A stretch of 64,000 nt of DNA from Bacteriovoracaceae bacterium (GTDB lineage Bacteria > Bdellovibrionota > UBA1018): positions 211,911 through 275,910 of the forward strand of contig CANFJX010000001.1 of NCBI GenBank assembly GCA_947447665.1. Reading direction: 5' to 3'. Positions 29,888 to 64,000 of the stretch are shown piece by piece. Made by a program: the position numbers and the translations under genes. How positions within the stretch are numbered: position 1 is the first letter of the stretch; each line of letters opens with the position of its first letter. The notes under the pieces were generated by a model. That model was given only the letters and a program-made list of their open reading frames with translations, had not been told where the DNA came from and searched no databases.

Positions 29888-30347
29888 TAATCAAGAAGCA
29901 CCGAAATCAGCAGAAAATCGAGACACTGTCCAGTTTTCTACTTTTTTTGTCTCAGGTCGGCTCTATGGAATTGACGTGAGTTCAGTCCAAGAGGTGACTA
30001 AGTCACTTCCAATCACTGAGGTCCCGCTAGCGCCGAATTATATTCACGGATTAATCAATCTCAGAGGCCAAATTGCCACGGCTGTAAGCCTGAGAGACCT
30101 TTTCGAATTGAAAGACCCAGCACCGAACGAATTTATGAACGTAGTCTGTCGTCTCGACGGAGTGCTTATTTCCCTTCTGGTGGATGAAATCGGGGATGTC
30201 ATCGAACTCAGCCAAAACTCCTTTGAGCCTACACCCGACACGATATCTCCTAAGGTAGCTAAATTTATGGACGGAATTTATAAAATACCAGGTCATTTAC
30301 TCAGTATAATTGAAGTAAAAAGAGTACTTGGCGTTTTGAACGAATAG
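29865..30347 (+). CDS. cheW: Chemotaxis coupling protein CheW
   Basis: It has the single CheW domain pattern (FFVSGRLYGIDVSSVQEV); 160 aa. Confidence 0.8.
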   Translation: MSEPSLTSNQEAPKSAENRDTVQFSTFFVSGRLYGIDVSSVQEVTKSLPITEVPLAPNYIHGLINLRGQIATAVSLRDLFELKDPAPNEFMNVVCRLDGVLISLLVDEIGDVIELSQNSFEPTPDTISPKVAKFMDGIYKIPGHLLSIIEVKRVLGVLNE

Positions 30348-30381
30348 TTTATTAATTTAATAAAATAGAAGGAATATTAAA

Positions 30382-31968: not shown

Positions 31969-33056
31969 AGGTACTTATTGTTGACGACTCGGTCGTATTT
32001 AGATCCCAAATCGCTGCTGCACTGACAGGCACCCCCCAAATCGAGGTCGTCGGATCAGCTCCGAATGGGAGCATTGCGCTTCAGAAGCTTGATCAGCTCT
32101 CGGTGGATCTAGTGACCCTGGATATGGAGATGCCAGACATGGACGGCATCGCTGTACTAAAGGCGATTCGAGAACGCAAACATAAGGTACGAGTCATCAT
32201 ATTTTCTGCCCAAACGATCCGAGGCGCAGAAAAGGCGCTTCAGGCGTTGAAGGCGGGAGCAGACGACGTGATCTCAAAGCCGTCCAGCAGCGAAGAGGCG
32301 ACGGATTACAAATCCCCTCAAGAGCGAATTCGGGAAATTCTAGTGCCAAAAATTCACCAATTCCTAGAAAAACGGGAGAAAACTTCGCTTACTCCAGAAC
32401 GCCGCGAAGAAAAACTCGAACTATTTCCCAAAACTCCCCCTCTAGGAGCATTCGAAAAACTCCCTCTGACGGGATTTCAGCCCTCAGCTGTGGTCATTGC
32501 TTCTTCGACCGGAGGCCCGACTGCCCTTGAAACCATTTTTACGCAAATCCCACAATCATTAGAGATCCCTATAATCATAGCCCAACACATGCCACCCGTT
32601 TTTACACAAATACTAGCCAAGAGACTAGGGGACCTCTCGAAGAAGCCATGCAACGAGGCTAAACATGGCGATATTTTAAAGCCTGGTCACATTTATGTCG
32701 CACCTGGAGACTACCACCTCCAAGTAGCCCACTCCTCAGGTGAAGTCGTACTGGAACTCAATCAAGGCCCGCAAAGGAACTCTGTTAGACCAGCTGCCGA
32801 TTATCTTTTTGAATCTGCGGCGGCGGTTTTTAGAAATCGGCTTTTAGGAATCGTACTTACCGGAATGGGGCAAGATGGTCTACAGGGCTCTATTGCCATT
32901 AAGCAAGCCGGGGGCCGCATCCTGATCCAGGACGAACCATCGTGTGTCGTCTTTGGCATGCCGGGAGCGGTATTCAAAGCCAATTGCTATGATGGAATGG
33001 GAGATCTCCAGATGATTTCCGGCGTACTACAAAAGTTATCGGAAAACCTACATTAA
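31965..33056 (+). CDS. cheB: Chemotaxis response regulator protein-glutamate methylesterase CheB
   Basis: The receiver ([11 protein letters not shown]...[10 protein letters not shown]) is followed by a methylesterase domain ([16 protein letters not shown]). Confidence 0.85.
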
Positions 33057-33072
33057 ACTAAGGGGGGAACTG

Positions 33073-33459
33073 ATGAAAAACTTTGGACAATTCCTAGTTG
33101 AAAAAAAAATTCTCTCCAAGGAGCATCTACTCGACTGTTTTTTAGAGCAGCTCTCCTCAATGCCAGCGATTTGTCAACTAGCAAGAGATAAAAACATTTT
33201 AAGCACAGACCAAATTCTCCAGGCTCTCGAGCTTCAGTCAAAAAATGAAATCGGATTTAAAGAGGCATGCCTGAATTTAGGACTTTGGAGCAATGAGACT
33301 GATACAGCCGTCAAAAAAGAGCTATCATTGATCCGTACGCCCCTTGGAAATATCCTACTCAAACGCGGTTTGATCAGCCTCCATGATCTCACCAGGGCTC
33401 TGGACGAATTTTTCTCTGATGATAGTCATTTATCATCTATTCCTAATTCCTCTTCTTGA
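33073..33459 (+). CDS. Standalone T2SSE_N/MshEN-like domain protein (putative c-di-GMP-binding)
   Basis: The 128-aa protein has repeated segments fitting the MshEN consensus RLGxxLLxxGLIxxxxLxxALxxQ. These are FGQFLVEKKILSKEHLLDCFLEQ, KNILSTDQILQALELQ and LGNILLKRGLISLHDLTRALDEFF. Confidence 0.45.
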   Translation: MKNFGQFLVEKKILSKEHLLDCFLEQLSSMPAICQLARDKNILSTDQILQALELQSKNEIGFKEACLNLGLWSNETDTAVKKELSLIRTPLGNILLKRGLISLHDLTRALDEFFSDDSHLSSIPNSSS

Positions 33460-33513
33460 ATTCCACCCGAAAAATGCCATAATTAGAGCATAGAAGGCTG
33501 GAAATTAAATACG

Positions 33514-34353
33514 ATGGAATTCTCTCAAGAAAAAATCCGATTTTTTGCAAAATATATCGAAAAAGAACTGGGAATTGTCTATTCAGACTCCAACTACTTC
33601 CAACTCGAACACAGACTGAGCGATATCACTTCTCAGCTAGGACTTAAAAGTCTCGAGGACCTCTGGATGAGGGCGACCTCAGGAATCGATACTCAACTCA
33701 AGGAACTCCTTCTAGACATTGCAACTAATAACGAAACCAGTTTTTTCAGAGACCCTTCCCTATTTGTCGGTCTCGTAAAATCGATTGTCCCCGAGCTTTT
33801 GTCGGCTAACCCCCAACTGAAGGAACTTCGAATCTGGAGCGCTGCCTGCAGTAATGGCCAAGAGCCCTACTCGATTGCAATGGCCTTAGATGAGGCTCGA
33901 TCTGAAAATCCAAATTTTCCCAATTATAAAATCCTTGCCACCGATTTTTCTGAGCGGGTTCTTTCTCGAACCAAAGCAAGAACGTATTCCCAATTGGAGT
34001 TGCAGCGAGGACTTTCGGCTTCTCGTCTACAAAGATATTTTGATCCCGGATCAGCGCCTAACACTTGGGTACTCAATAGCCGAATTCCGCCCTCAAACTT
34101 TCAGTTTCAACAACTCAACCTTCTCGATCCCTGGAATTTTGACCATAATTTTCATATCGTGTTTTGTCGTAACGTTCTCATTTACCAAAACGTCGACAAT
34201 AAAATTCGAGTGATCGACAAGATTTTAAAAGTTTTTGAGAAGGATGCTTATCTTGCCCTGGGAGCTGCCGAGAGTCTACTAGGTATCTCAGACTTGTTTG
34301 AACAGGTGCATTTCGAAAATTCCGTTTTTTATCGAAAAAAGCGGTCGAATTAA
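33514..34353 (+). CDS. cheR: Chemotaxis protein methyltransferase CheR
   Basis: The SAM-binding region IWSAACSNGQEPYSIAM and the CheR N-terminal helical domain are present. Confidence 0.85.
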   Translation: MEFSQEKIRFFAKYIEKELGIVYSDSNYFQLEHRLSDITSQLGLKSLEDLWMRATSGIDTQLKELLLDIATNNETSFFRDPSLFVGLVKSIVPELLSANPQLKELRIWSAACSNGQEPYSIAMALDEARSENPNFPNYKILATDFSERVLSRTKARTYSQLELQRGLSASRLQRYFDPGSAPNTWVLNSRIPPSNFQFQQLNLLDPWNFDHNFHIVFCRNVLIYQNVDNKIRVIDKILKVFEKDAYLALGAAESLLGISDLFEQVHFENSVFYRKKRSN

Positions 34354-37067
34354 GCTGCAACAAGCTCCTCTGGATCAATGACGGTAATTGTTCTACCCCC
34401 CAGGACAAGATTGCCTTGAATACCTCGCTGGTCCGCTATAGGAGGTTCTAAGTTACCGTTTGAACTCGCGATATCTATGATTTGCTTCACTTTGAAAGCA
34501 AGATACCTCTGATGACTCGCCATGACGATGACTTGAATTCGACTTCCGGTCGAGGCATTCACTTCCATCGCCGAACCTAAAAGCTCACTCATATTTAAGA
34601 TGGGTAAGATTTGTTTGCGATAAGGAATCACATTAAAATTACCGGACTTCTGAATTGAGTCAGCATCAAACTCCTCAAGCCTAAACACTGAATTTCTAGG
34701 AATGGCAAAAACCCCTGGAATGCTGAGCTCAAAAAGTAACCAGTCCGCGCTCTGAGTTGACCCATTTTGTAATTGAGTTTGTAACTTCTTCTCTTTACTT
34801 TTGAACAGTTCGGTCCGTATGTGAGCGATCTTCGCGATGCCATCAACACTCAAAAGAAGGCCAATGGTTCCATCCGATAAGAAGGTTGCTCCAGAATATG
34901 CGTCTAGTTTTTTTAGACTCGGCGCAAGCTCCCGCACGACTGCATCTTCAAAGTCACGAATCTCGTCCACAATGAGTCCAAAATTTTTACCGCCCTCAGC
35001 TTTCACAACCACTACCGTGAACTGACTCGGAAGAACCGACAGCTGAGAAGAAAACAGAACAGCTCCAAGCGAGACAAGCGGAACTGACTCCGCTTCGCTT
35101 TCTCGGAGTAAAATCCCCCCCTCAAGTTCACAAATGAGTTGTTTTCGGACCTGCTCGTCGATCTGAATAAGCCGGACAATTTGATCTTGAGCCACTCCAA
35201 ATTCCTGTCCCCCTGCCATTACGAAAAGACAGTTCTTAATATGAACTGACTTCGGGATCGGCAACTCCAAAACAAAACAGGTCCCCTTTGATTTTTCAGT
35301 TTCAATTCGGATTCGCCCGCCAATACCCTCGACACTCGTTTTTACAGCACTGGTACCCACGCCACGACCAGAAATCTCCGTAGTCTGTGCTGCAGTACTG
35401 AATCCCGACTCAAAAATAAATCCATAGACTTCAGCATCCGGCATTAGAGCAGCTGCGGCCTCAGTCCTCATCCCCTTGCTCACAATTTTTTTTCGGATCG
35501 CCTCTACATCGATGCCCTTACCATCGTCGCGGACTTCGACCATGACGTGGTCATTCTTGAGAAAGGCCCGGACCAAGAGCATCCCTTTTTCACTTTTACC
35601 TAATCTCACTCGCTCCTCTGGAGTCTCGATCCCGTGATCAATACTGTTACGAAGCAAATGACTCATCGATGCGTTGAGAACTTCAGAAATGGAACTATCC
35701 ACTAGTAAATCTTCGCCTTCTATACGAAGCGAGCAGGATTTTTTGGTTTTTTCGGTTACGTCTCGCACCAGCCGTGGCAAAGTTTTAAAGACATTTTTTA
35801 ATGAGACTTTTCTGACCTCGGTAATTTTTCCCTGCACCATGGCGTTTACTTTGTGAAGCTCGTCGAGCAAGTCTCCGAGTTGGGTTACATCTTTGTCGGA
35901 CGAGTATCGCTTCTCGAGCGTTAAGACTGACTTATTGACCATATTCCTCACGACGGTCATCTCGCCAGAGGCGCGCAGTAACTGATCTAAAAGCTGAATA
36001 TCGATTTTAATACTGTTTTCTTTCACAGGGTGCGCGGTGCTCGCATTGGCGCTCGAGTCAGCTTCTTGTGCAGCTTCTTGTGTATCCGAGGGTGGTTCAA
36101 TATTGCCACCTCCTAAGATCACAGCGTCTGAAAAAACCTGGCAAAGATCCTCTAAATTATGTTCTTGCTGGATCTGCGTATCAAACTCTTTCAACAGTCC
36201 TCTAGAAATATCGACTACCTTGAGAGTGGCGGAGATAAAGGGTTGAGAAATTTTCAGGGTATTACCTTGGACCCGCTTCAAGACATCTTCGAAGCGATGG
36301 TAAAATCGATGGAGAGTTTGAGGCTGAAAAAAACTACTGGCCCCCTTGATTGTATGAACTATTCCAAAAAGGCTATTGAGCAATTCCTTCTTGGTAGGGT
36401 TCTGCTCCAACTCAAGAGCGAGGCTTTCAATCTGCTCAAAGCATCCCTTGGTTTCCTCAATAAAAGCGCAGAGTAGCTCCAAATCTTCGTAAATCGAGGC
36501 AATCCTTTTAATCAACTCGCCTGATAGCACCGAGGCGAGAGCCCCTCGATCGAAAGGCTTCTCTAAAAGCCCTACTTGGCTGAGGGGTTCGATTTTAGAT
36601 AGCAGTTCGGCTCGTTGACTATCCGCTAAAATGAGAAGTGGAACGACCTCTAAGGCTTTTGTGAATTCTGATCGAAATGCCAAAGCACTCATGTCTCCAA
36701 GCTCGGCGGGACAGATGACCAATAATATTCGAGAATGGTCTTGCCGTAAGCGTTGAAGAGCCTCTGCTCCAGAATGAGCCCTGACAATTTCAATACCCCA
36801 GTCGGCGCTGAGAAGCTCGGCCTGGTTAGTCGACTCCGGATCTAATGCGCAAATTAAAACGGTCGGTTTTATTTTCGGGTTAGCAGTCTTGAGCGGTAAA
36901 GTTCTGGACTCAATTTCTTTACAAAGATTGGCCCAGCTCATCCCTGCGTCAGGTGATTGATTCATCTGAGCAGACCTCGTACCATCAGAATTTGTAGGTT
37001 CATGACTCAATTTACTTCCTATGTTCCCTTTCGGAACAGAAGGATAGAAACTTGAGTCGAGAGGCAC
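34350..37067 (-). CDS. Second hybrid CheA-like histidine kinase (degenerate N-terminal REC-like - HPt - HATPase - CheW-like x2)
   Basis: It has the HPt motif HTIKGASSFF and HATPase motifs (LRNSIDHGIE, GRGVGTSAV), followed by two CheW-like segments. It is convergent with cheR. Confidence 0.8.
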   Translation of the reverse strand: MPLDSSFYPSVPKGNIGSKLSHEPTNSDGTRSAQMNQSPDAGMSWANLCKEIESRTLPLKTANPKIKPTVLICALDPESTNQAELLSADWGIEIVRAHSGAEALQRLRQDHSRILLVICPAELGDMSALAFRSEFTKALEVVPLLILADSQRAELLSKIEPLSQVGLLEKPFDRGALASVLSGELIKRIASIYEDLELLCAFIEETKGCFEQIESLALELEQNPTKKELLNSLFGIVHTIKGASSFFQPQTLHRFYHRFEDVLKRVQGNTLKISQPFISATLKVVDISRGLLKEFDTQIQQEHNLEDLCQVFSDAVILGGGNIEPPSDTQEAAQEADSSANASTAHPVKENSIKIDIQLLDQLLRASGEMTVVRNMVNKSVLTLEKRYSSDKDVTQLGDLLDELHKVNAMVQGKITEVRKVSLKNVFKTLPRLVRDVTEKTKKSCSLRIEGEDLLVDSSISEVLNASMSHLLRNSIDHGIETPEERVRLGKSEKGMLLVRAFLKNDHVMVEVRDDGKGIDVEAIRKKIVSKGMRTEAAAALMPDAEVYGFIFESGFSTAAQTTEISGRGVGTSAVKTSVEGIGGRIRIETEKSKGTCFVLELPIPKSVHIKNCLFVMAGGQEFGVAQDQIVRLIQIDEQVRKQLICELEGGILLRESEAESVPLVSLGAVLFSSQLSVLPSQFTVVVVKAEGGKNFGLIVDEIRDFEDAVVRELAPSLKKLDAYSGATFLSDGTIGLLLSVDGIAKIAHIRTELFKSKEKKLQTQLQNGSTQSADWLLFELSIPGVFAIPRNSVFRLEEFDADSIQKSGNFNVIPYRKQILPILNMSELLGSAMEVNASTGSRIQVIVMASHQRYLAFKVKQIIDIASSNGNLEPPIADQRGIQGNLVLGGRTITVIDPEELVAA

Positions 37068-40836: not shown

Positions 40837-42198
40837 TTATTCTAATCCGTATCGCCTTCTCTTCCGCCAGAGTGTACTCAGATTAATTCCCAAAATTCCG
40901 GCAGCCTCCTCGAGTGTGGTCGCTGTCGACAAAACATGGCGGATATGTTGCTTCTCGATATCCTCGAGGCTGATGTCACTTTGAGTGAGAGCAGCCAGGG
41001 GAAGTTGACTCGGAAATCCAGACTGAGTGTGCTCTAAAACTCGATCAGGGAGATCCTCGATCGTAACTTGATCTCCAGTGCAGAGAATTGCGGCTCTTTC
41101 GAGGGCATTTTTGAGCTCGCGAATATTACCCGGCCAGCCGTAACCTTGGATCGCCTGCTTAGCTGCATCATTTAACGGTCGGGCTTTTCGCCCTGTCGAA
41201 ACAAAGGAGCGCGCAAGCAATTGGTCTGCGAGGGTTAAGATATCCTCTGGGCGCTGCCTCAGAGAAGGCATATGTAAATCAATCACGTTCAAGCGAAAAT
41301 AGAGATCCTCACGAAATCTTCCTGCTTTCACTTCTTTTTCTAGATCTTTATTAGTGGCAGCAATAATTCTGACGTCCACTCGTATTGTTTTCGTATCTCC
41401 GACGCGTTCGAATTCACGGTCCTGCAAGAAACGAAGAAGTTTAGTTTGGAGATTAGGCGAAACCTCTCCGATTTCATCCAGAAAGACAGTGCCCGTATCA
41501 GCAACTTGCAACCGCCCCATCTTATCCTTGACCGCACCCGTGAAGGCACCCCTCACATGACCGAAGAGCTCGCTTTCGAGGAGGTTCTCAGAAAGCGTTG
41601 CACAATTCACTACAGCGAATGGTCCTTTAGTTCTTGGACTGGCATCGTGCATGAGTTTCGCCAAGAGGGTTTTCCCTGTCCCGCTTTCGCCCGTAATTAA
41701 AATCGTTGAGTCCGTCACTGCAACTTTTTTTGCTGTATCCAGGACCTTGTGCATTCGTGCATTTTGCGTAGCGATCGACGAGGGCTCCGACAGCGCATCG
41801 ACCTGATCTCTGAGCTTTGTATTCTCTTCTCTGAGCTTGCGATAATCCTCGATCCTCTCAACGAGGTGCTCCAGCTGATCCGGGGTGAAAGGCTTGACCA
41901 AGTAGTCGTAAGCTCCGCTTTTGATCGCCGCAACTGCAGTATCAATCGTCCCATAAGCCGTCATCATAACTACGGTGGCAGCCGGGAAATATTCCCTGGC
42001 TTTTCCGAGGAGGTCGAGTCCACTCATCCCGTCCATTCGCAAGTCAGTAAGAATAATATCAGGGACTGATTTTCTCATCAAAGTGATGGCCATCTCCCCA
42101 CTTTCCGCTAACTCAACCTGATGCCCGATGTGCTTCAAAGCAGCTTCAATAGTAGTGAGAATACTTTTTTCGTCATCAACAACCAGAATACGTGCCAC
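40837..42198 (-). CDS. Sigma-54-dependent response regulator (NtrC family)
   Basis: It has REC, AAA+ (GESGTGKTLLAKLMH, GAFTGA, ESELFGH) and a C-terminal Fis HTH. Confidence 0.85.
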   Translation of the reverse strand: MARILVVDDEKSILTTIEAALKHIGHQVELAESGEMAITLMRKSVPDIILTDLRMDGMSGLDLLGKAREYFPAATVVMMTAYGTIDTAVAAIKSGAYDYLVKPFTPDQLEHLVERIEDYRKLREENTKLRDQVDALSEPSSIATQNARMHKVLDTAKKVAVTDSTILITGESGTGKTLLAKLMHDASPRTKGPFAVVNCATLSENLLESELFGHVRGAFTGAVKDKMGRLQVADTGTVFLDEIGEVSPNLQTKLLRFLQDREFERVGDTKTIRVDVRIIAATNKDLEKEVKAGRFREDLYFRLNVIDLHMPSLRQRPEDILTLADQLLARSFVSTGRKARPLNDAAKQAIQGYGWPGNIRELKNALERAAILCTGDQVTIEDLPDRVLEHTQSGFPSQLPLAALTQSDISLEDIEKQHIRHVLSTATTLEEAAGILGINLSTLWRKRRRYGLE

Positions 42199-42233
42199 AA
42201 GATCTCCCTTCCAAAATAGAATTCCCTACTCCA

Positions 42234-43610
42234 CTAAAGACAGTTTTTAACCCCAGTCGCGGACCGTGCCAGGCTGCCATCACGATAGCCAGGGTTAAAC
42301 TCTGCTCTGCCTGCTTTTTGAGTGATCGGTAACCTAAACCCGAACTCAGCTCCCGATCCCGGCTGACTGGAAACCCAAATTTCCCCTCCATGGGACGTAA
42401 CAATCTCTTTGGCAATGGCAAGACCTGCACCCACCACTCCAGATCGAGCCACACGGAGATCATAATAAGGATTAAATTTTTCAAAAACTCTCTCTTGTCG
42501 ATGAAGCTCGATTCCAGGCCCCGTATCTTTCACTCGAATTTGTGCCCAATCATTTGCAGTATCGAGATAGACCCCAACCCTGCCCCCCCTTGGCGTGTGC
42601 CGCAAGGCATTGGTTAGTAAATTAGACAGTGCCCATGCAATCTTCGTAGCATCGATTGTAATCATTAAATTTTTACGGGTCCCTACACTATCGGTAGGAA
42701 GCGCGATCGACTGAGTCAGCTGAATCTCTTTTTCCTCTGCTTGCATTCGGAAGGACTGTACAGCATGACTCAGAAGCTTTCCAAGATCAATTTTTTGAAG
42801 TTCGAGTCGCTGAGCTAAGATATCAAATCGAGAAACCGTCATTAAATCATCAAGAAGTCCACGAAGGCGATCGACATCTTGAGCGCAGGTCGAGATCAAA
42901 TTCTGGTGCGTTAAATCGGGAAATTGATCTTTCGATTTATCAAGAAGGTGAATCGCCATCGTTAAACTGGTGACAGGGGTCTTAACTTCGTGAGACAGGG
43001 TTCCAAGAAAATGTGCTTTGGCCTCCTGGCTCTCTTTCAAAAGTGTCACATCCTGGGCTAAAATGAGAAGATTAGGCTCCACGTTTTCCAGCTGGAGTTT
43101 GTCCACTCCTTTCAGATCGAAAGCCACAGGACAAGACTGAACCAAAAAGTATTGTTTCCGATCCTTCCTCTGAAAAACAAACTCCACAGGCAAGCTGCTC
43201 GTCAGCGCCTTCACCACGGCCCCAGCACCAGCCGTCAAGGCACTCTGACCCTGGCGGTCAAACCTAAATCCCACAACCGGGGTTTTTGAAGGCAGATCAA
43301 GAATCCGCTCAGCAATGGGATTTGCATAGAGAACTTCCTGGCCCCTCAGCAGCAGAATACCGTCCGAAATCGATGCTGCAATTAAATCGGCCCTTTGTTT
43401 TTCGACTAAGAGCTTCCCATAGTTGACTAAATAATTTAACTTACTTTGGGCTGCCGCTTTTTTGTGAGAAATGAACCAAACGATGATTACTACACAGCTT
43501 ATCAAGCCGAACTGAATCAGTAAGGCATGCCCGCGAAAAATGATCAGCAACAATCCAATGATCAAGATTTCTGCTAGTGCAAGTAAAAATCGGAACCTGC
43601 TCAACGCCAA
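42234..43610 (-). CDS. Membrane sensor histidine kinase (partner of the NtrC-like regulator)
   Basis: It has two N-terminal TM helices, the H-box LSHEVKTPVTSL, and HATPase N/G boxes. Confidence 0.8.
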   Translation of the reverse strand: MALSRFRFLLALAEILIIGLLLIIFRGHALLIQFGLISCVVIIVWFISHKKAAAQSKLNYLVNYGKLLVEKQRADLIAASISDGILLLRGQEVLYANPIAERILDLPSKTPVVGFRFDRQGQSALTAGAGAVVKALTSSLPVEFVFQRKDRKQYFLVQSCPVAFDLKGVDKLQLENVEPNLLILAQDVTLLKESQEAKAHFLGTLSHEVKTPVTSLTMAIHLLDKSKDQFPDLTHQNLISTCAQDVDRLRGLLDDLMTVSRFDILAQRLELQKIDLGKLLSHAVQSFRMQAEEKEIQLTQSIALPTDSVGTRKNLMITIDATKIAWALSNLLTNALRHTPRGGRVGVYLDTANDWAQIRVKDTGPGIELHRQERVFEKFNPYYDLRVARSGVVGAGLAIAKEIVTSHGGEIWVSSQPGSGAEFGFRLPITQKAGRAEFNPGYRDGSLARSATGVKNCL

Positions 43611-52090: not shown

Positions 52091-53800
52091 TCAAAAAGCA
52101 AGACTTACTCCAGCCGGCCTAATGATATCTAGAAGACCCTGAAACGAGGTCGTCACCTGGGCAGCCACCTTTTTTCCGGCCTGACTGCTCACTTCCTTGA
52201 TCCCACCACTATTGTTGTAAGTAACTGTAATTGAGCCCAAAGCTGGGTCAGAAATTTCGATTGGCTTTGAGATCTCATTATACTTAAAATTGATCTGCTC
52301 TTTATTTTGATCAATCAGCGTTCGAATTCGACCTAGACCATCGTAAATCAACTTAACACCTTTACCTTCTGAGTTTTTAGCGAATGATAAATTCCCCTTA
52401 GAATCGTATTGAAACTCAGACCAAATTGATTTCTTCTTATCTTTGACAGGATACTTGACCACGCGATCTACCTTATTAGCTTTCTGATCGTAGTGCAGCT
52501 CCGTCACTTCATAGGGCGTTGTCTTCTTGGTGACATGCCCCTTAGCATCATAGACGAACTGAGTCTCATCGCTCCCCTGCTTAATCACCAGAGGCAACCC
52601 GCAACACTCGCTATAGGTGGTCTCCACCTTATCCCCATCAAAATCAGCAATCAACTTATAGGTCCACTCCTCACCCGTTGGCTTGACCTTGGTCAGATAC
52701 TGATACTTACTCTGCGACAGGACTTCCGATCCCTTCTTACTTACAACAGAAACTGAACTATTACCCTTATTTGCTGAGTTACTCCCGTAATCATACTCAG
52801 TCACAGTTCCATCACGATCTTTAACTCTCAGAACGTTCTCCTGCCGATCCATTCCATAATAACTAATGTTCATTGCAGTTTTGTCGACGTACCCAATCTC
52901 AATCATATTATGACGCCGTTGATCATCATAACGATAGCTATAGCTGTTACCGTCGACGTCCTTGCTCTGAGTGAGCTCGCCACCAGCGTTATAAGTGTAA
53001 ACAGCTGACTTCCCGCCCTCGCCGTCCATCTGAGAGACTAAACCCTGACTATTGTATGAAAAAAACATTTTCCGATTTAAGTTATCGACCAATTTTTTTA
53101 GATGTCCGTCGGCGCCGTATTCAAAGGCAATGTAATTTCCGTTTTTATCTGAAATTTTTGATAAATGTCCTTGATTATTAAATTTCTCAACCCGACCCGA
53201 ATCGGCCAAATTCCGCACATAACCGTCGCTCGTTTTAGTTATGTACTGATAGTTAAAACGATTGGACTGCAACTGAGTCCCCGTAGCAAGTTCCCGCGCC
53301 TTGATCTTTCCCTGAGCTTTAAATGCTTCCCACTGCTGATTTCTAAAGGAGGCATCGGCTCGCAGCCGACTCTTGTAATCGACTAATTGTGCTGCAGTGC
53401 CCAAGGTTCCCTCCTGCTGAGCCACCTTGGCAAGGCTATCGACTGCTTTCTCTAGCTCAGAGGCACTGAAGGCGAGGGGATTAAACCGATTCTCAGCCCC
53501 TCCGCCATATTCATGAACCACCACGCTGCCATCGGCAGATACGGTTAGATAAACCTCGAACTCATTACCCCAACCCCACCCAAACATTCCACGATAGGGA
53601 CTTTTTGAGTTATAAACACGCTCCAGTTTGGTTTCAAATCCACCGCTATAGATGGCGTCGGTATAGGCGATGAAAAAATTTCCATTCTTCAAGCTAACAT
53701 TTGCCTGCAAATCTTGCCCACCAAAAAAAACACCCAGAGTCACCAACATGGTGATGCCAAAATTTAATTTCATTGCGTGAATACCCCCAAAAAAGAACAA
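52091..53800 (-). CDS. Secreted YD-repeat (RHS-family repeat) protein without a recognisable C-terminal toxin domain
   Basis: It has a signal peptide and multiple YD repeats (YDAKGHVTKKT, YRYDDQRR, YTYNAGGELTQSKDVDGN); 569 aa. Confidence 0.7.
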   Translation of the reverse strand: MFFFGGIHAMKLNFGITMLVTLGVFFGGQDLQANVSLKNGNFFIAYTDAIYSGGFETKLERVYNSKSPYRGMFGWGWGNEFEVYLTVSADGSVVVHEYGGGAENRFNPLAFSASELEKAVDSLAKVAQQEGTLGTAAQLVDYKSRLRADASFRNQQWEAFKAQGKIKARELATGTQLQSNRFNYQYITKTSDGYVRNLADSGRVEKFNNQGHLSKISDKNGNYIAFEYGADGHLKKLVDNLNRKMFFSYNSQGLVSQMDGEGGKSAVYTYNAGGELTQSKDVDGNSYSYRYDDQRRHNMIEIGYVDKTAMNISYYGMDRQENVLRVKDRDGTVTEYDYGSNSANKGNSSVSVVSKKGSEVLSQSKYQYLTKVKPTGEEWTYKLIADFDGDKVETTYSECCGLPLVIKQGSDETQFVYDAKGHVTKKTTPYEVTELHYDQKANKVDRVVKYPVKDKKKSIWSEFQYDSKGNLSFAKNSEGKGVKLIYDGLGRIRTLIDQNKEQINFKYNEISKPIEISDPALGSITVTYNNSGGIKEVSSQAGKKVAAQVTTSFQGLLDIIRPAGVSLAF

Positions 53801-53809
53801 AAATTAAAA

Positions 53810-54670
53810 TCAAACGTCAATCTTAACCACTCTCATGATGACAAAGAAACCCGCAATTTCCAATACTATAATTACCAAAATACATAACCACCCTAGAGGA
53901 GTGGTAAAGAGGGGCCTCATCAGATCTGGGTCAGATTGATTCAGTATAAAGCCCAGAATCGGTGGAAGTGACATGACCAGAACCCCTTGATAAAATCCCT
54001 GGGCGGTCAGTGCCGCAATCTTATTCTCGACCTTAATTCGCTCTCGAATCGTAGTCACAATCGTATCAAAGGTCTCCGCCAAGTTTCCGCCGGTCTCCCT
54101 CAAGATATTTACCGAAGTCACAAACATTTCCACATCATCTGCGGGTATTCGTTTGGCAAGGCTCAAAAATGCATCCTCGATGGAAACACCCAACTTATTT
54201 TCACTCAGCACCAAGTTAAACTCCTGCTGAATCGGATTCGGCATTTCTTGACTCACGAGAGCCAAAGATTGGACCACTGATAGCCCCGACTTAAGCCCAT
54301 TAGACATCAAACTCAGACCGTCAACCATTTGAAGTACAAATCGATTCACTCTCCTTAAGTAATACCAATCGACTACCGGTTTAGGCGCCTTCCACCCAAT
54401 TACAGTCGTAACAATCGCGATTGGCAACCCTGGAATAATATTAGGTAAGAATGAAATAAATACAATTGATCCGAGACCGAAACTAAGTAAGAAGAGCCCG
54501 ATCAGAATCCTTTCAGAGGGCACTTCTATGAACATCATTGCCAGCTTCTCTACAATATAGTCACGAGTCCCAAGAGACTGAAATCGGAGCCAATCGAAAA
54601 ATCGGTTGCTATAGTGGTAAGCAAATAAAAAGCATGAAATTCCAAAAAGTAAGATTCCTATTAACTTCAT
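53810..54670 (-). CDS. tadC: Tad/Flp pilus assembly inner-membrane platform protein (TadB/TadC, T2SS-F family)
   Basis: It has the polytopic GspF-like domain and lies in the Tad cluster. Confidence 0.7.
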   Translation of the reverse strand: MKLIGILLFGISCFLFAYHYSNRFFDWLRFQSLGTRDYIVEKLAMMFIEVPSERILIGLFLLSFGLGSIVFISFLPNIIPGLPIAIVTTVIGWKAPKPVVDWYYLRRVNRFVLQMVDGLSLMSNGLKSGLSVVQSLALVSQEMPNPIQQEFNLVLSENKLGVSIEDAFLSLAKRIPADDVEMFVTSVNILRETGGNLAETFDTIVTTIRERIKVENKIAALTAQGFYQGVLVMSLPPILGFILNQSDPDLMRPLFTTPLGWLCILVIIVLEIAGFFVIMRVVKIDV

Positions 54671-56869: not shown

Positions 56870-58573
56870 TCAGTTAACTTTTACTCTGAAATTTTTCTTT
56901 AGATCCTCGGTCCCATCAGATGCGTTCTCTATAATCTGTGGGGTAACAAAAATAACAAAGTTACTCTTATTTTTTCGATACGCCTTAGAATGCAGCAAAT
57001 TAAATAAGGGAACCGTGGTATTGCTTGATGTTCCGGAAGCGCCCCCAGTTGGGTCGTCCTTGTTAAATTCCGTCGCGACGTTCTGACCGTTTACCCCAGC
57101 AATGGCTGCACTTTCATTCGACTTAACGTAAACCTTGGTATTCACTTTATGGGTGGCAGTCACAGGCGCACCACCACTTGTAGAAGCCTGACCCACTAAG
57201 TCTGTCTGATCAAGTTCCATATCCATTTGAATATCTTCACTTTGTCCTAGGATCTGCGGAGTCACTGCCACGGAGAGCCCGACTGCCTTGCTTTGGCTAG
57301 TCATTTGGCCATTTTGGCCAGCAACCAGAAATGGATACTCCGTCTGCTCTTTTAGGGTGGCGGGCTGCCCGCTACGAACCACCAAGGTCCCCGTTTTAAG
57401 AACTCTTGCATATCCAGCAGTCTGAAGACTACTTAACTTCGGAAGCAGACTTGAGACAGTCCCCCCGAAAGATGCCGCATTAGCACTACTACCGGCTGCG
57501 CCCGCGGCATTCTGGCCAATAGTAATATAGGGGTCAGAGGTAAATCCAGGCTGCCACTTAAATCCAAAAACTTTATTATAATCCTTGGCTAACTCTACGA
57601 AGTGGACTGTTACACGAACGAGTTTTTCATTTTTCCTAGGCGGCGCTGGTAGCACCATAATAAAATTTTGTACTAAATTTCGTTGAGCAACCCGCTGAGC
57701 AGTCAAGTCCTTCTCTAAAAGAGTACTCGGCTTGATCTCAGGAAGATAAAGGGAGGCAATCTGGGCAGCTCGTTTCGCCTCATCTAATGAATTGGTCGTG
57801 CCCTCTAAAAAAATCATCCCGTTCACCACTCGAGTTCTCACGTTGGGGGCGAATGCAGAAATATCACCTTGAATTCGATTGGCTAAGAACTGCATCGCCA
57901 AGGGCGATAGCACCGTTAGATTCATAACAAAATCGAGATAGGTTTTATCTGAGATCACTGCATAAAGGCGGCCGTAATCGGCAGGAACCAAAACCTCACC
58001 TTCGATCACAATTTTAGGACCTACGATTCTGATAGTAATACCTTCAATATCTCGGAGTAGGTCCGTGACTTCGGCCTTAATCCTGAGCAAGTTGCTCCCA
58101 GTAACCCGAACCACAAATATAATGCCAATATTGCCTTCTTCATCTCTGATCGTCACAGTCGTTTCGCCAGCCTTCAGAGGCTTCAATACCACCTGCTTCC
58201 GATCCCCAATCTTAGCTAGAGTTGCTGTCACAACGAGAGGATTTCCATAGCTAATACCAGCGGGTGTCATGTTCGCGTCGAAATTTAGATCGACCGCTTT
58301 ATCCTCCCCTGTCGTTAACAAGAGCCGACGCCTATCGGCAACCTCCTCAGACTGATCGTAGGTAACTCGAGACTTCCTATATTTTTTCTGCAGTGGTCCG
58401 GACGCACTAGGGTCAGCGGATTGAGCAGGAGCACTCCGTGGTCTGTCCGAAGCGGCTGGCTGGCCTGCTACCACTCCAGACTGAGCGTCTTCAGCCCGAG
58501 CAAAACCCATGAACGAAGTAAAAATAACTAAAGTCGCTGAAATCAAAATAGTGATTGTATATTTAGTCTTCAA
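56870..58573 (-). CDS. cpaC: Tad pilus secretin CpaC/RcpA
   Basis: It has a signal peptide and a C-terminal secretin domain (...TVPLFNLLHSKAYRKNKSNFVIFVTPQII). Confidence 0.8.
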   Translation of the reverse strand: MKTKYTITILISATLVIFTSFMGFARAEDAQSGVVAGQPAASDRPRSAPAQSADPSASGPLQKKYRKSRVTYDQSEEVADRRRLLLTTGEDKAVDLNFDANMTPAGISYGNPLVVTATLAKIGDRKQVVLKPLKAGETTVTIRDEEGNIGIIFVVRVTGSNLLRIKAEVTDLLRDIEGITIRIVGPKIVIEGEVLVPADYGRLYAVISDKTYLDFVMNLTVLSPLAMQFLANRIQGDISAFAPNVRTRVVNGMIFLEGTTNSLDEAKRAAQIASLYLPEIKPSTLLEKDLTAQRVAQRNLVQNFIMVLPAPPRKNEKLVRVTVHFVELAKDYNKVFGFKWQPGFTSDPYITIGQNAAGAAGSSANAASFGGTVSSLLPKLSSLQTAGYARVLKTGTLVVRSGQPATLKEQTEYPFLVAGQNGQMTSQSKAVGLSVAVTPQILGQSEDIQMDMELDQTDLVGQASTSGGAPVTATHKVNTKVYVKSNESAAIAGVNGQNVATEFNKDDPTGGASGTSSNTTVPLFNLLHSKAYRKNKSNFVIFVTPQIIENASDGTEDLKKNFRVKVN

Positions 58574-59406
58574 CGCTTTACTCCCTGACTCTTAGCCTTC
58601 GCGATCGCTTCTGCGCCAACCACATCAACCAAGCCTGCCATTGGAAGCGGAACACGCTCTAAATCATCGTTATTCCTCAGTGCCACCGAAAGTGCGTTAT
58701 CACCATTATTAATCAAAATCGCGAGAGTCTGAACCTGAGCCGGCTCAACCTCGACTGTTACGGTGGAAAAAGTAAAGTCATCAGCCAGCGACTTAACTCG
58801 CTCTTTCCCGCCCATGGGATCGATCTCGACACTTCGGGCCACATTATTCGTGATATAGTGTCCAGTTGCCAATACAACCAGATCTTGCAACACGGTCTTG
58901 GCAACCTTGTTTTCCTTTCCTGCACCCACATCGACCACCGCAACTAGATCGATTCGATCCCCGGGCTTAATCAACTTAGACACCCCAGTCAGGTCATTAA
59001 TAGGGATTGAGTAGGCTCGTTTACCTGGAGTTACCTGCGTCGAAAGGCCTGTTCGAGTTCCAGGCTCAGTCATTTTATTGTAGGTAATCTGCTCACCCTT
59101 CTTAATAGGAACCACTGCAATGCTCCCGGCGATTCCCCTCAGGGTCTTGGAAGTCTCCTTCTCGTCTTCCTTCTTTTCTAGGGAAATAGAGGATGGCTCT
59201 AAGTACCTTTTTGGAATGGGCTTAAACTCGAGCATCGGCTCGTTTATCGTCTCCATCTCAAGAATATCTTTTTTAGCAACTAGCACTAAAACCTCTGAGC
59301 CATTTCGCTTCTTAGCTTCATCCTCAATACTCGACACGTAGCTGTTCATAAAAATGACTGCTATGATGGCAAATAGGGCAGCAAATCTAACTGTTTTGTT
59401 ATTCAT
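58570..59406 (-). CDS. cpaB: Flp pilus assembly protein CpaB/RcpC
   Basis: It has an N-terminal TM followed by SAF-like domains. It is translationally coupled to cpaC. Confidence 0.7.
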   Translation of the reverse strand: MNNKTVRFAALFAIIAVIFMNSYVSSIEDEAKKRNGSEVLVLVAKKDILEMETINEPMLEFKPIPKRYLEPSSISLEKKEDEKETSKTLRGIAGSIAVVPIKKGEQITYNKMTEPGTRTGLSTQVTPGKRAYSIPINDLTGVSKLIKPGDRIDLVAVVDVGAGKENKVAKTVLQDLVVLATGHYITNNVARSVEIDPMGGKERVKSLADDFTFSTVTVEVEPAQVQTLAILINNGDNALSVALRNNDDLERVPLPMAGLVDVVGAEAIAKAKSQGVKR

Positions 59407-60582: not shown

Positions 60583-60823
60583 TAGAATTTATCCTCGGAT
60601 GCATCACTGCAGCACCCTCATCTGGACCAGTAGCTTTCGGATGACCATACTTATAAGCCGAAAAAAATGGACCTGATACAATGGTTAGAACCTTTTTTGA
60701 GATATTCATTTGACCAATGATTGCGGAAATCGCTACGAAGAAAGTAACAATAGCTGAAATCAGCAAAATGTACTCCGTCGTTGCCTGACCAGACGAATCA
60801 TGAACCCAACGTTTATCTATCAT
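60542..60823 (-). CDS. TadE/Flp-like minor pilin
   Basis: It has the motif SGQATTEYILLISAIVTFF. Confidence 0.45.
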   Translation of the reverse strand: MIDKRWVHDSSGQATTEYILLISAIVTFFVAISAIIGQMNISKKVLTIVSGPFFSAYKYGHPKATGPDEGAAVMHPRINSNGNFRIFFGAYSQ

Positions 60824-61359
60824 TGAAGGAGCCCTCCGTCCCTCGCTACTGTGATCATCACTGCAAGCGAAATCATCACCCCATATGGGATTTTGTCTTC
60901 AAGATCGATTGGAGAATAATGAGCCTCCAATCCAGGCACGCAAACTGATAAAATAAAATCAGTTAGTTTTCTAAAAAAATTAAATAGCCGTCCACGCAGG
61001 GCGAGAGAAACCATCGCAAAGCCTCCACCTAATAAAATGGCTAGGATACCTACATGAATGATAAACTCCGGACCACCCCAGGTACCTAGTGCCATCAAGT
61101 ACTTAACGTCTCCTCCACCCAAAAACCTGAGCCAAAACATCCAGCTCACAAGAAGAAAAGCAACCAACAGTCCACCCAACGATTGATACAAACCGCCCCA
61201 AAGTGTTAGACCGGAAAAAAAGCACGAATTGACGATACCCACCAGAGCAAGCGAAACTGTAAACCAATTAAATATTTTCCTTAAAATTAGATCTGAGAGT
61301 ATTGCTGCTACAGAGGCAAGCACTAGAAAAATAGGAGCGTGATTAATTGCTCCAAACAC
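60820..61359 (-). CDS. Prepilin peptidase (A24 family, TadV/CpaA)
   Basis: It is polytopic and carries the GGGDVKYL catalytic Asp motif. Confidence 0.7.
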   Translation of the reverse strand: MFGAINHAPIFLVLASVAAILSDLILRKIFNWFTVSLALVGIVNSCFFSGLTLWGGLYQSLGGLLVAFLLVSWMFWLRFLGGGDVKYLMALGTWGGPEFIIHVGILAILLGGGFAMVSLALRGRLFNFFRKLTDFILSVCVPGLEAHYSPIDLEDKIPYGVMISLAVMITVARDGGLLQ

Positions 61360-61567
61360 TGAGTGGAGCCCTTCCTGATTTTAGATCCTGCTCTAAGACA
61401 GCGCCAACGCGTAGAACAACAAGATCGAGGGATCCAATGATTTGACGTCCAACTTGGGAGGCTCCAACAACAACGAGAGCCACCACGAGCAGGTACTCCA
61501 CTGTGCCCTGGCCTTCTTGGCTCTTTGTGCGATTACTGAGATGTGACCGCGGAGTCAATCTGACCAC
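61343..61567 (-). CDS. flp: Flp/Fap pilin
   Basis: It has the Flp motif GQGTVEYLLVVALVVV (G/EY cleavage motif plus hydrophobic helix). Confidence 0.6.
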   Translation of the reverse strand: MVRLTPRSHLSNRTKSQEGQGTVEYLLVVALVVVGASQVGRQIIGSLDLVVLRVGAVLEQDLKSGRAPLSVWSN

Positions 61568-61733
61568 CTACAGTGCTCACGGCGTTTAATAGGCTAGATT
61601 GAAATTGCGCTTTGAACTTCAAGACGATCATCACTACGATGGCCAACATCAGAAGGTACTCGGTCATCGACTGGCCTTCTTCATCTTTCCAAAGCTTGGT
61701 TAAAAACTTTTTCATAAGCACTCTCTCTTCCAT
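61533..61733 (-). CDS. flp: Flp/Fap pilin
   Basis: It has the Flp motif EEGQSMTEYLLMLAIVVMIV. The likely start is the internal MKKFL. Confidence 0.6.
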   Translation of the reverse strand: MEERVLMKKFLTKLWKDEEGQSMTEYLLMLAIVVMIVLKFKAQFQSSLLNAVSTVGGQIDSAVTSQ

Positions 61734-61808
61734 CTCCCTCCTATTCGGAAACAGGATGGAAAACTTAAATCTAATACTATTATAATTTTATCATACACAA
61801 ACTGTCAA

Positions 61809-62570
61809 CTAAAAAATACCCAATACTATCGATAGGTTATCGTTCGAATTAGGCTCACACTTAACTAAATTAAACACTTCATTGGCCGCTTGTTCCGGCT
61901 TTAGATTTTTTTGCTTAATTTGACAAATTTGGCTCACCCATTGAGCCTCGTTGTCCACCCGAACACCGTCAGTCTGAAGAATCAACCAGTCCTGAGGCAT
62001 CAGCCTGCACTCGACAATTTCAGGTTCCAGATCCTCGTACATTCCAAGCGCCGTCAAGGGCACCTGATACTGGCTGCCATGAGATGAACCCAACAATGCC
62101 GCTGCTGGATCGACGAGGCGTCCGTAAGTCCTAGGACTCACCAAGGGCACGCCGGTACTGCCCCGAAAAAGCCAAGCCCTGCAGGATCCTATATTCGCCA
62201 GGGCGAGGAAATCTCCATCCAAGAATCCAGTCAGTACGGATGCGCCACCTCGCTCATTAATATTCCTCTTCTTATTGTCTTCAAGAATCTTTTGATTTGC
62301 ATAGATGAGTGCATTAAAAAGAACATTTCCAGCCAGAGAAATATAACTGCGTAAAACAAAGGGTAGAGTAGCGTCCATATCCCGAGAGCCTCGAAGTAGA
62401 AATGCCTCAATCAGATCGCACGCAAGTCGGGAAGTACGGGAACCGGGAGCAGGTCCTCCAAAGCCATCTGCGACAGAGAGAATTCCTCGTTCGGAGTGAA
62501 TCCTAAGTTCGTCCTCTTGCGCAGGCCTGGGCCCCTGTAGTTTAAGACTAGCAAAATAGGGTCGAGTCAT
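61809..62570 (-). CDS. PP2C-family Ser/Thr protein phosphatase
   Basis: It has ILSVADGFGG and further PPM motifs (TDGV); 253 aa. Confidence 0.65.
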   Translation of the reverse strand: MTRPYFASLKLQGPRPAQEDELRIHSERGILSVADGFGGPAPGSRTSRLACDLIEAFLLRGSRDMDATLPFVLRSYISLAGNVLFNALIYANQKILEDNKKRNINERGGASVLTGFLDGDFLALANIGSCRAWLFRGSTGVPLVSPRTYGRLVDPAAALLGSSHGSQYQVPLTALGMYEDLEPEIVECRLMPQDWLILQTDGVRVDNEAQWVSQICQIKQKNLKPEQAANEVFNLVKCEPNSNDNLSIVLGIF

Positions 62571-64000
62571 TTTGGCTGTTCTCCTCCCCCTGGTGGGGGG
62601 TTTTGAACTTGGGGTTGAACGACTGAAGCAGTAGGGTCGGCGACGACTTGGGCTGGCTCAGGAGCTGCCTCGGGTGCTGGCTGAAGCGAAACAAATTTCG
62701 TCAACTTCCTCACGGACCGGTCGTGATAAATATCATCGGGTGGAGCAATCTCGAGGCACTTTTTGAATAGTTTTTCTGCTGCATCGAAGTCACTATAATT
62801 TTCTGCGATGACGGCCTCCGTATAGACTACCTTAGCTTGATCATGAAGGGCTCCTCGAATTCGACTCATCCCATCGTACCCAGCTGGATGGTGGGAATCG
62901 ACTCGAGTTGCTTTTTGATACAACTTAAAGGCACCCATGAAGTCGCCATTTATCTCCGCATTTTTTGCTCCGGCGAGAATAGGGTCTCGCAGCTTTCGGA
63001 TCTTAATCCTGTCTTCTCCAATTCTTAAATGAGATTGCTGAAGTAATTTTTGATCGGTCACGCCGATATCCACTATTTTTTTCAAAGTAGAAATGGAACT
63101 TTGATATTTACCAGATTTTTCTTGAGCGAGACCTTGGCGATACATTCTCCAGCCTTCAGCATTAATTTCTCTTTTCACTTGATCTAATTGGATTTGAACT
63201 TTTTTCTTCTCCTCAATAGCATCGATATCTTTTCTCCAATCAGCAACAGGTCCGTTGTCGGGATCTATCGCTAGAATTTGGGTAAAAAGTTCGCGTGCCT
63301 CTTCGTACTGCTTTTCTTTCATCTTACTTCTTGCGTCTTCAACTAGTGATGCCACCCTCGACTTTAACTGTTCTTCCTCTTCTTTCTTCCTTTTCTCTTC
63401 GTCGATAGATTCCTGTTTTCTTTTACCCTCTTTTGCATAGCGCTGGATCTCCCTGGAATCCTTATAATCTGGGATAATATTGAATATTTTTTCAATTTCA
63501 AAAATTGACTTATCGAAATCTTTATTCTTATAGTAATCAAAAGCTAAAGCATGTTGATCCTCTACAAATTTTCGTTTATCAGCTGGAAGCTTCTCAAAAC
63601 TGAGATCATTGGGAACTCCGGAAGCCTGTACAGTCACCTTCTTAATGGGAGCGATCGGTTTGGCCTTCGACCCAGAGTCGTCATCTAAGAACCACCAAAT
63701 AAACATAATCGCTGCAATGACCACCACAACCTGGGTTCTACGAGGGAGGGCCTTAAATCTTTCCTCAAGCCCTTTACCTTGGGGTTTTACTGACTCCAAG
63801 CCAATGACACCACTCATGCCGGCAGAGGAGCTACCTAATGACTCAGCCGAGTCTTGTGCAAACTCCAGCGGACTATCACTCTCTAGTTGAGGCGAGTGGA
63901 AATCATCTCCAATCTCATCGGGTATGACCTCGAGCTGGGATTTCTGGGCTTCGTACTCATGGTTGATGACCTTGAATTGAAACTCAGTATCTCCAATTTG
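62567..64000 (-). CDS. FHA-domain - TM - TPR-repeat protein (5' end beyond the window)
   Basis: The ORF continues upstream of the annotated Met to the window end. That translation (…QIGDTEFQFKVINHEYEAQ…) resembles an FHA C-terminus. A single TM helix (VVVIAAIMFIWWF) and multiple TPR-like repeats follow. Confidence 0.55.
   Translation of the reverse strand, partial: QIGDTEFQFKVINHEYEAQKSQLEVIPDEIGDDFHSPQLESDSPLEFAQDSAESLGSSSAGMSGVIGLESVKPQGKGLEERFKALPRRTQVVVVIAAIMFIWWFLDDDSGSKAKPIAPIKKVTVQASGVPNDLSFEKLPADKRKFVEDQHALAFDYYKNKDFDKSIFEIEKIFNIIPDYKDSREIQRYAKEGKRKQESIDEEKRKKEEEEQLKSRVASLVEDARSKMKEKQYEEARELFTQILAIDPDNGPVADWRKDIDAIEEKKKVQIQLDQVKREINAEGWRMYRQGLAQEKSGKYQSSISTLKKIVDIGVTDQKLLQQSHLRIGEDRIKIRKLRDPILAGAKNAEINGDFMGAFKLYQKATRVDSHHPAGYDGMSRIRGALHDQAKVVYTEAVIAENYSDFDAAEKLFKKCLEIAPPDDIYHDRSVRKLTKFVSLQPAPEAAPEPAQVVADPTASVVQPQVQNPPPGGGEQPK

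Follow-up and report, generated by a model that had tools for sequence, protein, structure and literature searches.

Is a forkhead-associated (FHA) protein paired with a phosphatase, next to the pilin genes of a tight adherence (Tad) locus, part of a threonine-phosphorylation checkpoint on the pilus? This question is raised by one end of a 64,000-nucleotide (nt) stretch of a Bacteriovoracaceae bacterium genome, hereafter the window (assembly GCA_947447665.1, contig CANFJX010000001.1, positions 211,911 to 275,910). There, a gene encoding a protein with two FHA domains, a transmembrane (TM) helix, and TPR repeats (2xFHA-TM-TPR) is followed by a PP2C phosphatase gene and by the pilin genes flp1 and flp2 (table 1). 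We find that the two genes are counterparts, by synteny in an uncultured relative, of Bdellovibrio bacteriovorus Bd0474 and Bd0475 and that they end a conserved operon starting with tadC. The phospho-checkpoint proposed in a preliminary description of the window is a reasonable idea that gains some new support.

The coordinates and the strand confirm that the pair is co-oriented with, and directly upstream of, flp1 and flp2; all genes from 53.8 to 64 kb are on the minus strand. The start of the PP2C gene and the stop of the FHA-TPR gene share 4 nt (ATGA), and 75 nt separate the end of the PP2C gene from flp1. As its frame is open to base 64000, the 2xFHA-TM-TPR gene is truncated by the window edge. 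A protein search identified the full-length product, P0001 (734 amino acids, positions 10001–12205 of contig L001), which is 100% identical to the part encoded in the window; L001 itself overlaps the window over 11,434 nt with 0 mismatches. Outside the window lie the start codon of P0001, its first FHA domain (FHA1), the linker carrying residue T166, and most of the second domain (FHA2). The presence of an FHA domain had been called from about 14 visible residues, and the complete protein bears this out: Pfam identifies FHA in two stretches (E 2e-25) plus TPR repeats, and the model has the FHA fold.

According to its AlphaFold model, P0001 is composed of FHA1 (residues 1–97), a disordered linker (99–169), FHA2 (170–277), a TM helix (344–363), and a helical domain (397–696). 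The TM segment is hydrophobic in 28/28 aligned homologues and is preceded by positive charges, which places the N-terminus in the cytoplasm. We rejected the assignment of the TPR domain to the TadD/PilF-type pilotins: P0001 has no lipobox, its repeats follow an internal membrane helix, and only generic or designed TPR proteins were matched in the PDB and NCBIfam. The JGI label "TadD" of one homologue, P0005, is the lone hint toward TadD.

Upstream of P0001, the genes encode, in order, an FHA protein of 334 amino acids (FHA334), an FHA protein of 532 amino acids (FHA532), a DUF192 protein, and a TadC-like T2SSF protein. Beyond TadC, a divergent glycosyl hydrolase gene and then CoA-metabolism genes complete the next 10 kb past the window end. 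The preliminary description had suggested that a cognate Ser/Thr kinase may lie just past this end; none is encoded in these 10 kb, which were fetched and annotated. In FHA334, a single membrane helix is combined with a short periplasmic part resembling TPR; the protein aligns collinearly with P0001 as its paralogue (hhalign E 1e-26). FHA532 shows a conserved T-L-K-P-F junction and a HAMP-like part, and has no output enzyme domain. We also considered a hidden kinase or other enzyme in FHA532 or FHA334 and rejected it, as PDB, Pfam, and NCBIfam profiles returned only FHA plus weak PAS/LOV or TPR matches. FHA334, FHA532, and P0001 all match Pfam Yop-YscD_cpl, and the six proteins from TadC to PP2C all stay below the cutoffs of the curated NCBIfam models. 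The operon encodes three inner-membrane proteins with four cytoplasmic FHA domains and with TPR or sensor-like domains in the periplasm, co-translated with TadC, the platform protein, and with the soluble PP2C-fold enzyme.

A conservation scan with one genome per species found 62 related loci. Their labels are nearly all Bdellovibrionota, Oligoflexia, or Bacteriovoracaceae metagenome-assembled genomes, with a few other or unspecific ones, e.g., Lysobacteraceae and Pseudomonadota. The closest species-representative relative of the proteins shares 50% identity and the divergent split locus L064 26%. Wherever the contig allows, an array of 16 genes is collinear: tadC, DUF192, FHA532, FHA334, FHATPR, PP2C, flp1, flp2, tadV, three minor pilin genes, rcpC, rcpA, tadZA, and tadB. 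The set from tadC to PP2C is collinear in more than 50 species-level genomes, and PP2C directly follows the FHA-TPR gene in 57/57 loci whose contig runs on, a same-order pairing showing that the adjacency is not due to chance. From DUF192 to PP2C, the successive junctions have medians of −13, +7, −1, and −4 nt; the median gap between PP2C and flp1 is +139 nt. In L014, L022, and L034, for which enough downstream DNA is available, and in L064, the genes from tadC to PP2C are kept and no pilin or other Tad genes follow them. Because the junctions are tight and the set stays with tadC in the split loci, the module is the tadC operon, made of six genes encoding TadC, DUF192, two FHA proteins, the 2xFHA-TM-TPR protein, and PP2C.

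A consensus sigma-70 promoter faces flp1 (table 1). Among 48 related loci, most have a TTGAC box about 100–150 nt upstream of flp1, and at least one TTGAC occurs in the gap in 45. An inverted-repeat operator (TTGAC-N7-GTCAA) over the −35 box of flp1 was found in only 6/48 loci and was discarded as a general feature. Judging from the sequence, the pilins are most likely expressed from their own promoter; since no terminator was predicted in the PP2C-flp1 gap, read-through remains possible. Adjacency to the pilin genes is thus one arrangement among others, a positional and not a transcriptional link. Of the tie to the pilin genes that had been proposed, the common Tad locus and the coupled FHA-TPR/PP2C pair are retained. 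The module itself belongs to the tadC operon, flp1 has its own promoter, and four genomes carry the module without pilin genes.

The FHA domains have the features of phosphothreonine readers. The fold was recognized by Pfam, by AlphaFold (strands with a predicted local distance difference test, pLDDT, >90), and by Foldseek, with which P0001 aligns to GarA, OdhI, and FhaA at TM scores of 0.83–0.90 on the target. Profile and fold searches with the FHA proteins rank GarA, OdhI, FhaA, EmbR, Rv1747, and B. bacteriovorus DgcB first. In FHA2 of P0001, G200-R201, S215, and S235/N237/G238/T239 are invariant or nearly so, and Asn replaces the His of the SxxH motif; FHA1 keeps G28-R29 and S43-R-H-H. The pockets of FHA532 and FHA334 (pocket Arg R27 and R45, respectively) are fully canonical, with G-R, S-x-x-H, and S-x-N-G-T invariant or nearly so. 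In the linker between the two FHA domains of P0001, which is otherwise variable, 60–175 residues long, and modeled with pLDDT <50, T166 is the sole invariant residue (Thr in 49/49 orthologues). It lies in a [DE][DE]D[AG]xT[KRQ][VIL] motif, always 7–9 residues before FHA2. This conservation makes T166 a candidate phospho-acceptor.

The PP2C protein was more difficult to recognize. Its match to Pfam PP2C_2 is weak (25.9 bits for a cutoff of 24), its best PDB match from the single sequence has an E value of 3e-5, and the precomputed Pfam label is absent from most of its homologues. A profile of the 70-sequence family matches tPphA in the PDB at E 4e-16 over nearly the full length. The AlphaFold model (pLDDT 89.8, predicted TM score 0.88) displays the PP2C/PPM fold, a central beta-sandwich with flanking helix pairs, and Foldseek aligned it to tPphA, PppA, and PstP with TM scores of 0.81/0.86, 0.76/0.83, and 0.76/0.81, respectively. 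The motifs carrying the ligands of the M1 and M2 metals are present: R-x-x-x-E-D, D-G-x-G-G (DGFGG), [ST]-D-G, and D-N. Among the 70 homologues, E19, D20, D35, G36, G39, and N245 are conserved in 70/70, D201 in 67/70, and D244 in 62/70 (plus four with Glu), and the L064 protein, at 27% identity, keeps all M1/M2 ligands. Two further features characterize the family. A low-confidence loop inserted between helices 1 and 2 (residues 62–78) carries the invariant D64-x-[DE]-A-T68-L-P70-F71, and G-x-C replaces G-D-S at residues 128–130, with Cys130 in 70/70 sequences. Both the loop and the Cys are kept in L064. By these sequence marks, the phosphatase is a distinct PP2C subfamily that standard domain models detect poorly.

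The closest described counterpart is the B. bacteriovorus operon comprising Bd0470 (tadC), Bd0471, Bd0472–Bd0474 (all FHA), and Bd0475, annotated as hypothetical and given as 91% serine phosphatase in the Phyre2 column (Duncan et al. 2019; PMC6561027). Gene order and content are the same, and Bd0474, with FHA domains at 2–100 and 134–241 and an extracytoplasmic TPR domain at 363–673 (PMC12034629), has the layout of P0001. All six genes have low fitness, with transposon sequencing (Tn-seq) values on planktonic Vibrio cholerae, from Bd0470 to Bd0475, of 0.033, 0.015, 0.0021, 0.0025, 0.0036, and 0.023; a Bd0474::tn mutant attaches to prey with no killing or rounding and was complemented, and the PknG-like kinase Bd3148 has a fitness of 0.003 (PMC6561027). 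Bd0474 interacts in a two-hybrid assay with Bd0075, a TPR/GYF-like protein encoded elsewhere, and AlphaFold-Multimer predicts a contact between Bd0475 and Bd0473; this 2025 study never mentions a phosphatase or a kinase (PMC12034629). A Bd0075-like TPR partner was not found among the window open reading frames that were scanned (the largest of 1078, 920, 913, and 905 amino acids, plus others). Unlike the B. bacteriovorus operon, which is apart from the main tad locus, the operon described here abuts flp1, in a locus that includes tadV.

Other systems share part of this organization. In the threonine phosphorylation pathway of the type VI secretion system (T6SS), Pseudomonas aeruginosa uses the PpkA kinase, the PppA PP2C phosphatase, and Fha1, and Agrobacterium a TssL-Fha pair. 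As here, an FHA scaffold and a PP2C phosphatase belong to the locus of a trans-envelope machine, and PppA is among the best structural matches of the present PP2C. Here, FHA and PP2C genes are co-encoded with machine genes, but no kinase gene is found in the same locus; four FHA domains are distributed over three membrane proteins in place of one soluble Fha, the PP2C lacks the Asp of the GDS motif, and the machine is a Tad pilus and not a contractile sheath. The Mycobacterium tuberculosis operon fhaA-fhaB-pstP-...-pknA-pknB also combines FHA and PP2C genes in one transcript, and FhaA, FhaB, and PstP are among the best matches here; that operon includes the kinases, and its target is cell-wall synthesis. 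Control of the Sulfolobus archaellum by ArnA/ArnB likewise places an FHA protein under a Ser/Thr kinase and phosphatase in a type IV filament system, and the ArnA FHA structure (5a8i) matches ours. That FHA protein is soluble, and the control is exerted on the transcription of filament genes.

Two further systems come from predators. The Myxococcus xanthus Kil system (KilD, MXAN_4648, MXAN_4649), likened here by description, is a Tad-like machine of a predator and includes several FHA and FHA+TPR proteins. KilD (MXAN_3108) is required for killing and marks prey-contact sites, and the foci of this FHA+TPR protein at prey contacts form even without the Tad core (PMC8460266); the many FHA proteins of this system have been noted and phospho-signaling has been proposed (Seef et al. 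2021 and a 2025 review; PMC8460266, PMC12428579). The Kil system differs in that KilD is predicted to be cytoplasmic, KilF is an FHA domain fused to an ATPase, whereas here TadZ is fused to TadA, and no phosphatase is listed in the Kil clusters. A word-indexed profile search toward KilD or Bd0474 returned only the same Bdellovibrionota clade and unrelated FHA proteins; P0216, a remote match of 599 amino acids, has no Tad context. The second system is the FHA-GGDEF switch DgcB (Bd0742) of B. bacteriovorus, the FHA domain of which binds its own pT14 tail and for which Bd3148 was named as the kinase candidate, with multiple substrates expected (Meek et al. 2019; PMC6733907). Its FHA domain is GarA-like, matches P0001 (6hc1, TM score 0.82), and follows an activating phosphothreonine tail, L-E-K-pT-S-I-V, which shares with the T166 motif acidic residues at −2/−3, an often basic residue at −1, and a hydrophobic residue at +2. 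Unlike P0001, DgcB is soluble and has an enzymatic output, and its tail Thr lies 18 residues before the domain instead of 7–9.

We favor, with about evenly divided confidence, the interpretation that the operon products form an inner-membrane module that reads phosphothreonine within a predatory-type (Kil-like) Tad pilus machine, that is, a phospho-regulated platform. A Hanks-type kinase encoded elsewhere would phosphorylate threonines of the operon products or of a component of the Tad machine; for B. bacteriovorus, the candidate might be Bd3148, already put forward in connection with the DgcB switch, which is related. T166, invariant and immediately preceding FHA2, would be the most promising site. 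Once prey is attached, binding of FHA domains to phosphothreonine would keep the platform in one assembly state, whether active or inactive, and PP2C would reset it. Since flp1 has its own strong promoter, control would be exerted on the machine and not on pilin transcription. The checkpoint originally proposed thus keeps in its favor a co-inherited, coupled pair, conserved FHA pockets, and the two-metal ligands of PP2C, and loses its flanking kinase.

Several observations weigh against this platform model. No Hanks kinase was detected when about 1.2 million residues of open reading frames, from the 64-kb window and from 63 loci taken with 10 kb on either side, were searched with the PknB kinase domain at E ≤ 10 and with a catalytic-loop/DFG pattern; both methods found the positive control P0223, the one true kinase among the fetched proteins (E 3e-49). 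The Pfam labels of neighboring genes include no kinase of the Hanks type either. No kinase is linked to the operon in any of the 63 loci; the kinase must act in trans. The third-metal Asp of motif 5 (G-D-S, D119 of tPphA), required for efficient catalysis according to the title of PDB entry 2y09, never occurs at the corresponding PP2C position 129, which is A, G, V, S, or T in the 70 homologues. With G-x-C in place of G-D-S, the predicted phosphatase could be a weak or inactive enzyme. FHA1 is missing the Asn of SxNGT, and the fixed spacing of 7–9 residues between T166 and FHA2 could also fit a structural cap. The literature contains no demonstrated phosphorylation of any protein of the operon. 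Finally, the correspondence with Bd0470–Bd0475 is a match in gene order, sizes, and published domain descriptions, and the Tn-seq effects of the upstream Bd genes may be partly polar.

Part of these data would also be explained by a phosphorylation-independent scaffold, a possible though less probable alternative in which the FHA membrane proteins are structural parts of a ring or platform of the Tad machine, as are the cytoplasmic domains of SctD/PrgH, also of FHA fold, in type III secretion systems, and the PP2C-like protein is a catalytically impaired adaptor bound to them. The three FHA proteins are indeed anchored in the membrane and have periplasmic domains, as do SctD/PrgH and TagH, and all match Yop-YscD_cpl; the collinear paralogy between FHA334 and the long protein is what repeated structural subunits would show. 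The missing third-metal Asp, the lack of a linked kinase, and the direct Bd0475–Bd0473 contact predicted by AlphaFold-Multimer (PMC12034629) point the same way. However, none of the four FHA domains varies at the Arg and Ser that contact the phosphate, which is unexpected without phospho-binding (FHA1 lacks only the SxNGT Asn), and the closest FHA relatives are phosphothreonine readers. Moreover, all four PP2C M1/M2 ligands are kept across 27–100% identity. Membership of the SctD/PrgH family was rejected: only FHA532 scores against the NCBIfam SctD model (TIGR02500), with 17.4 bits for a cutoff of 86, and SctD/PrgH chains are not among the PDB profile matches of the FHA proteins. It is rather unlikely that the operon is instead a prey-contact signaling hub, using its periplasmic TPR, sensor, and PAS-like parts to sense contact at the envelope, with cyclic di-GMP production by DgcB, gliding arrest, or effector release as outputs and pilus assembly not the regulated step. 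FHA532 has a suitable sensor layout, TM-periplasmic-TM-(HAMP-like)-PAS-like. Bd0474 mutants still attach to prey while tadC mutants do not (PMC6561027), KilD foci do not depend on the Tad core (PMC8460266), and Bd0474 binds a protein encoded elsewhere, Bd0075 (PMC12034629). Such a hub is more difficult to reconcile with an operon translationally coupled to tadC, and remaining with it in split loci, and with FHA proteins none of which carries an enzymatic output domain.

That PP2C is a general Ser/Thr phosphatase of the Stp1/PstP type, encoded here by happenstance, is very improbable. In NCBIfam, it comes closest to the Stp1/IreP family (E 1e-16), but the score of 60.8 bits is far from the cutoff of 230. 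A dedicated role is favored by the 4-nt overlap with the FHA-TPR gene, by the 57/57 synteny, by a fitness defect of Bd0475 that is specific to predation, and by the family-specific loop and Cys, kept down to 27% identity. The platform model can also be extended, in a version that we regard as speculative and improbable. A single trans-acting kinase activated by prey contact, a relative of Bd3148, would drive a relay with two arms, the DgcB cyclic di-GMP switch and the Tad module, with two invariant threonines as FHA ligands, T166 in the linker of P0001 (motif D-x-x-T-[KR]-hydrophobic) and T68 in the disordered loop of PP2C. PP2C would be recruited to and timed by the FHA proteins that it resets, providing a self-limiting license for pilus-driven invasion, and G-x-C would tune or redox-gate its activity.

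The remainder of the Tad array lies downstream of the pair (table 1). The shorter public call of flp2 (52 amino acids) begins after the prepilin motif, so the gene must really start upstream, at the GTG at 61567 or a TTG close to it, and overlap flp1 at the 3′ end of the latter. TadV is also encoded in about 40 relatives; in a 2026 preprint, no TadV is reported in the tad loci of B. bacteriovorus HD100, where Flp1 is processed by PilD. The same preprint describes a TadZA fusion and the presence, close to the HD100 tad loci, of FHA and TPR genes. Here, conservation within the array is highest for TadZA, with its ParA/MinD-like TadZ part (mean top-residue frequency of 0.84). Directly after tadB, a gene encodes an RHS/YD-repeat protein with a DUF6531 domain (52091–53800, minus strand; L001 20999–22205). 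It is kept in 29/29 loci reaching that far, with scores of about 120–920 bits, and this conservation suggests a fixed 17th member of the Tad array and not a variable toxin cassette. About 10 kb downstream of the array, a histidine kinase and an NtrC-type sigma-54 response regulator are encoded as a pair (40837–43610, minus strand); a similar pair is found beside a Flp-like gene in the unrelated locus L066. The region from 18928 to 37067 is rich in signaling genes, encoding a GAF-PAS hybrid histidine kinase (18928–22164), CheA-type kinases (27146–29887 and 34350–37067), and a PAS-containing methyl-accepting chemotaxis protein (30382–31968).

Table 1. Features of the tadC operon and of the Tad array, in window coordinates unless contig L001 is named
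Feature	Position	Strand	Basis and remarks
DUF192 (COG1430) gene	L001 7032–7415, beyond window end		Translationally coupled between tadC and the first FHA gene, 48 loci
FHA532 gene, 532 amino acids	L001 7403–9001, beyond window end		FHA, TM, ~145 periplasmic residues, TM, weak PAS/LOV-like C-terminus
2xFHA-TM-TPR gene, 3′ part (residues 258–734 of 734)	62567–64000	minus	Frame open to base 64000; full protein P0001
Last beta-strands of FHA2, residues 258–277, QIGDTEFQFKVI...	63941–64000	minus	Sole FHA sequence within the window
Single TM helix, residues 345–364, RTQVVVVIAAIMFIWWFLDD	63680–63739	minus	Hydropathy scan; AlphaFold helix 344–363
Periplasmic all-helical TPR-like domain, residues 397–696	62684–63583	minus	Pfam TPR_2 E 1e-15; AlphaFold pLDDT >90
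PP2C/PPM-fold phosphatase gene, 253 amino acids, no membrane segment	61809–62570	minus	Open reading frame, Pfam, profile, AlphaFold
Sigma-70 consensus promoter, TTGACA-18 nt-TATAAT	61779–61808 (L001 12964–12993)	minus	12/12 consensus match; from the first base after the PP2C stop; faces flp1
flp1 pilin gene	61533–61733	minus	Pfam Flp1_like; position conserved
flp2 pilin gene	61343–61567	minus	Prepilin motif SQEG/QGTVEY, upstream of the shorter public call
TadV prepilin peptidase gene	60820–61359	minus	Pfam Peptidase_A24
Three TadE/TadF-like minor pilin genes, 93/194/210 amino acids	59421–60823	minus	Pfam TadE for two; N-terminal hydrophobic helices; order conserved
rcpC	58570–59406	minus	Pfam RcpC
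rcpA secretin gene	56870–58573	minus	Secretin label
TadZ-TadA fusion ATPase gene, 719 amino acids	54692–56851	minus	Pfam CbiA/ParA and T2SSE; NCBIfam TadA, MinD
tadB	53810–54670	minus	T2SSF label

These results are of modest novelty: the idea is an older one, and both the module and the need for it in predation have already been published. It was known that Myxococcus Kil and Bdellovibrio Tad loci are enriched in FHA proteins and that B. bacteriovorus possesses a phosphothreonine-gated cyclase, DgcB. What is added here is that the Tad-linked FHA proteins form a fixed six-gene unit with a dedicated PP2C, that this PP2C carries subfamily marks (the invariant Cys, the absence of the third-metal Asp, and the D-x-[DE]-A-T-L-P-F loop), and that T166 provides a specific mutable Thr. 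The module bears on the transition from attachment to the killing or invasion of prey in predatory bacteria.

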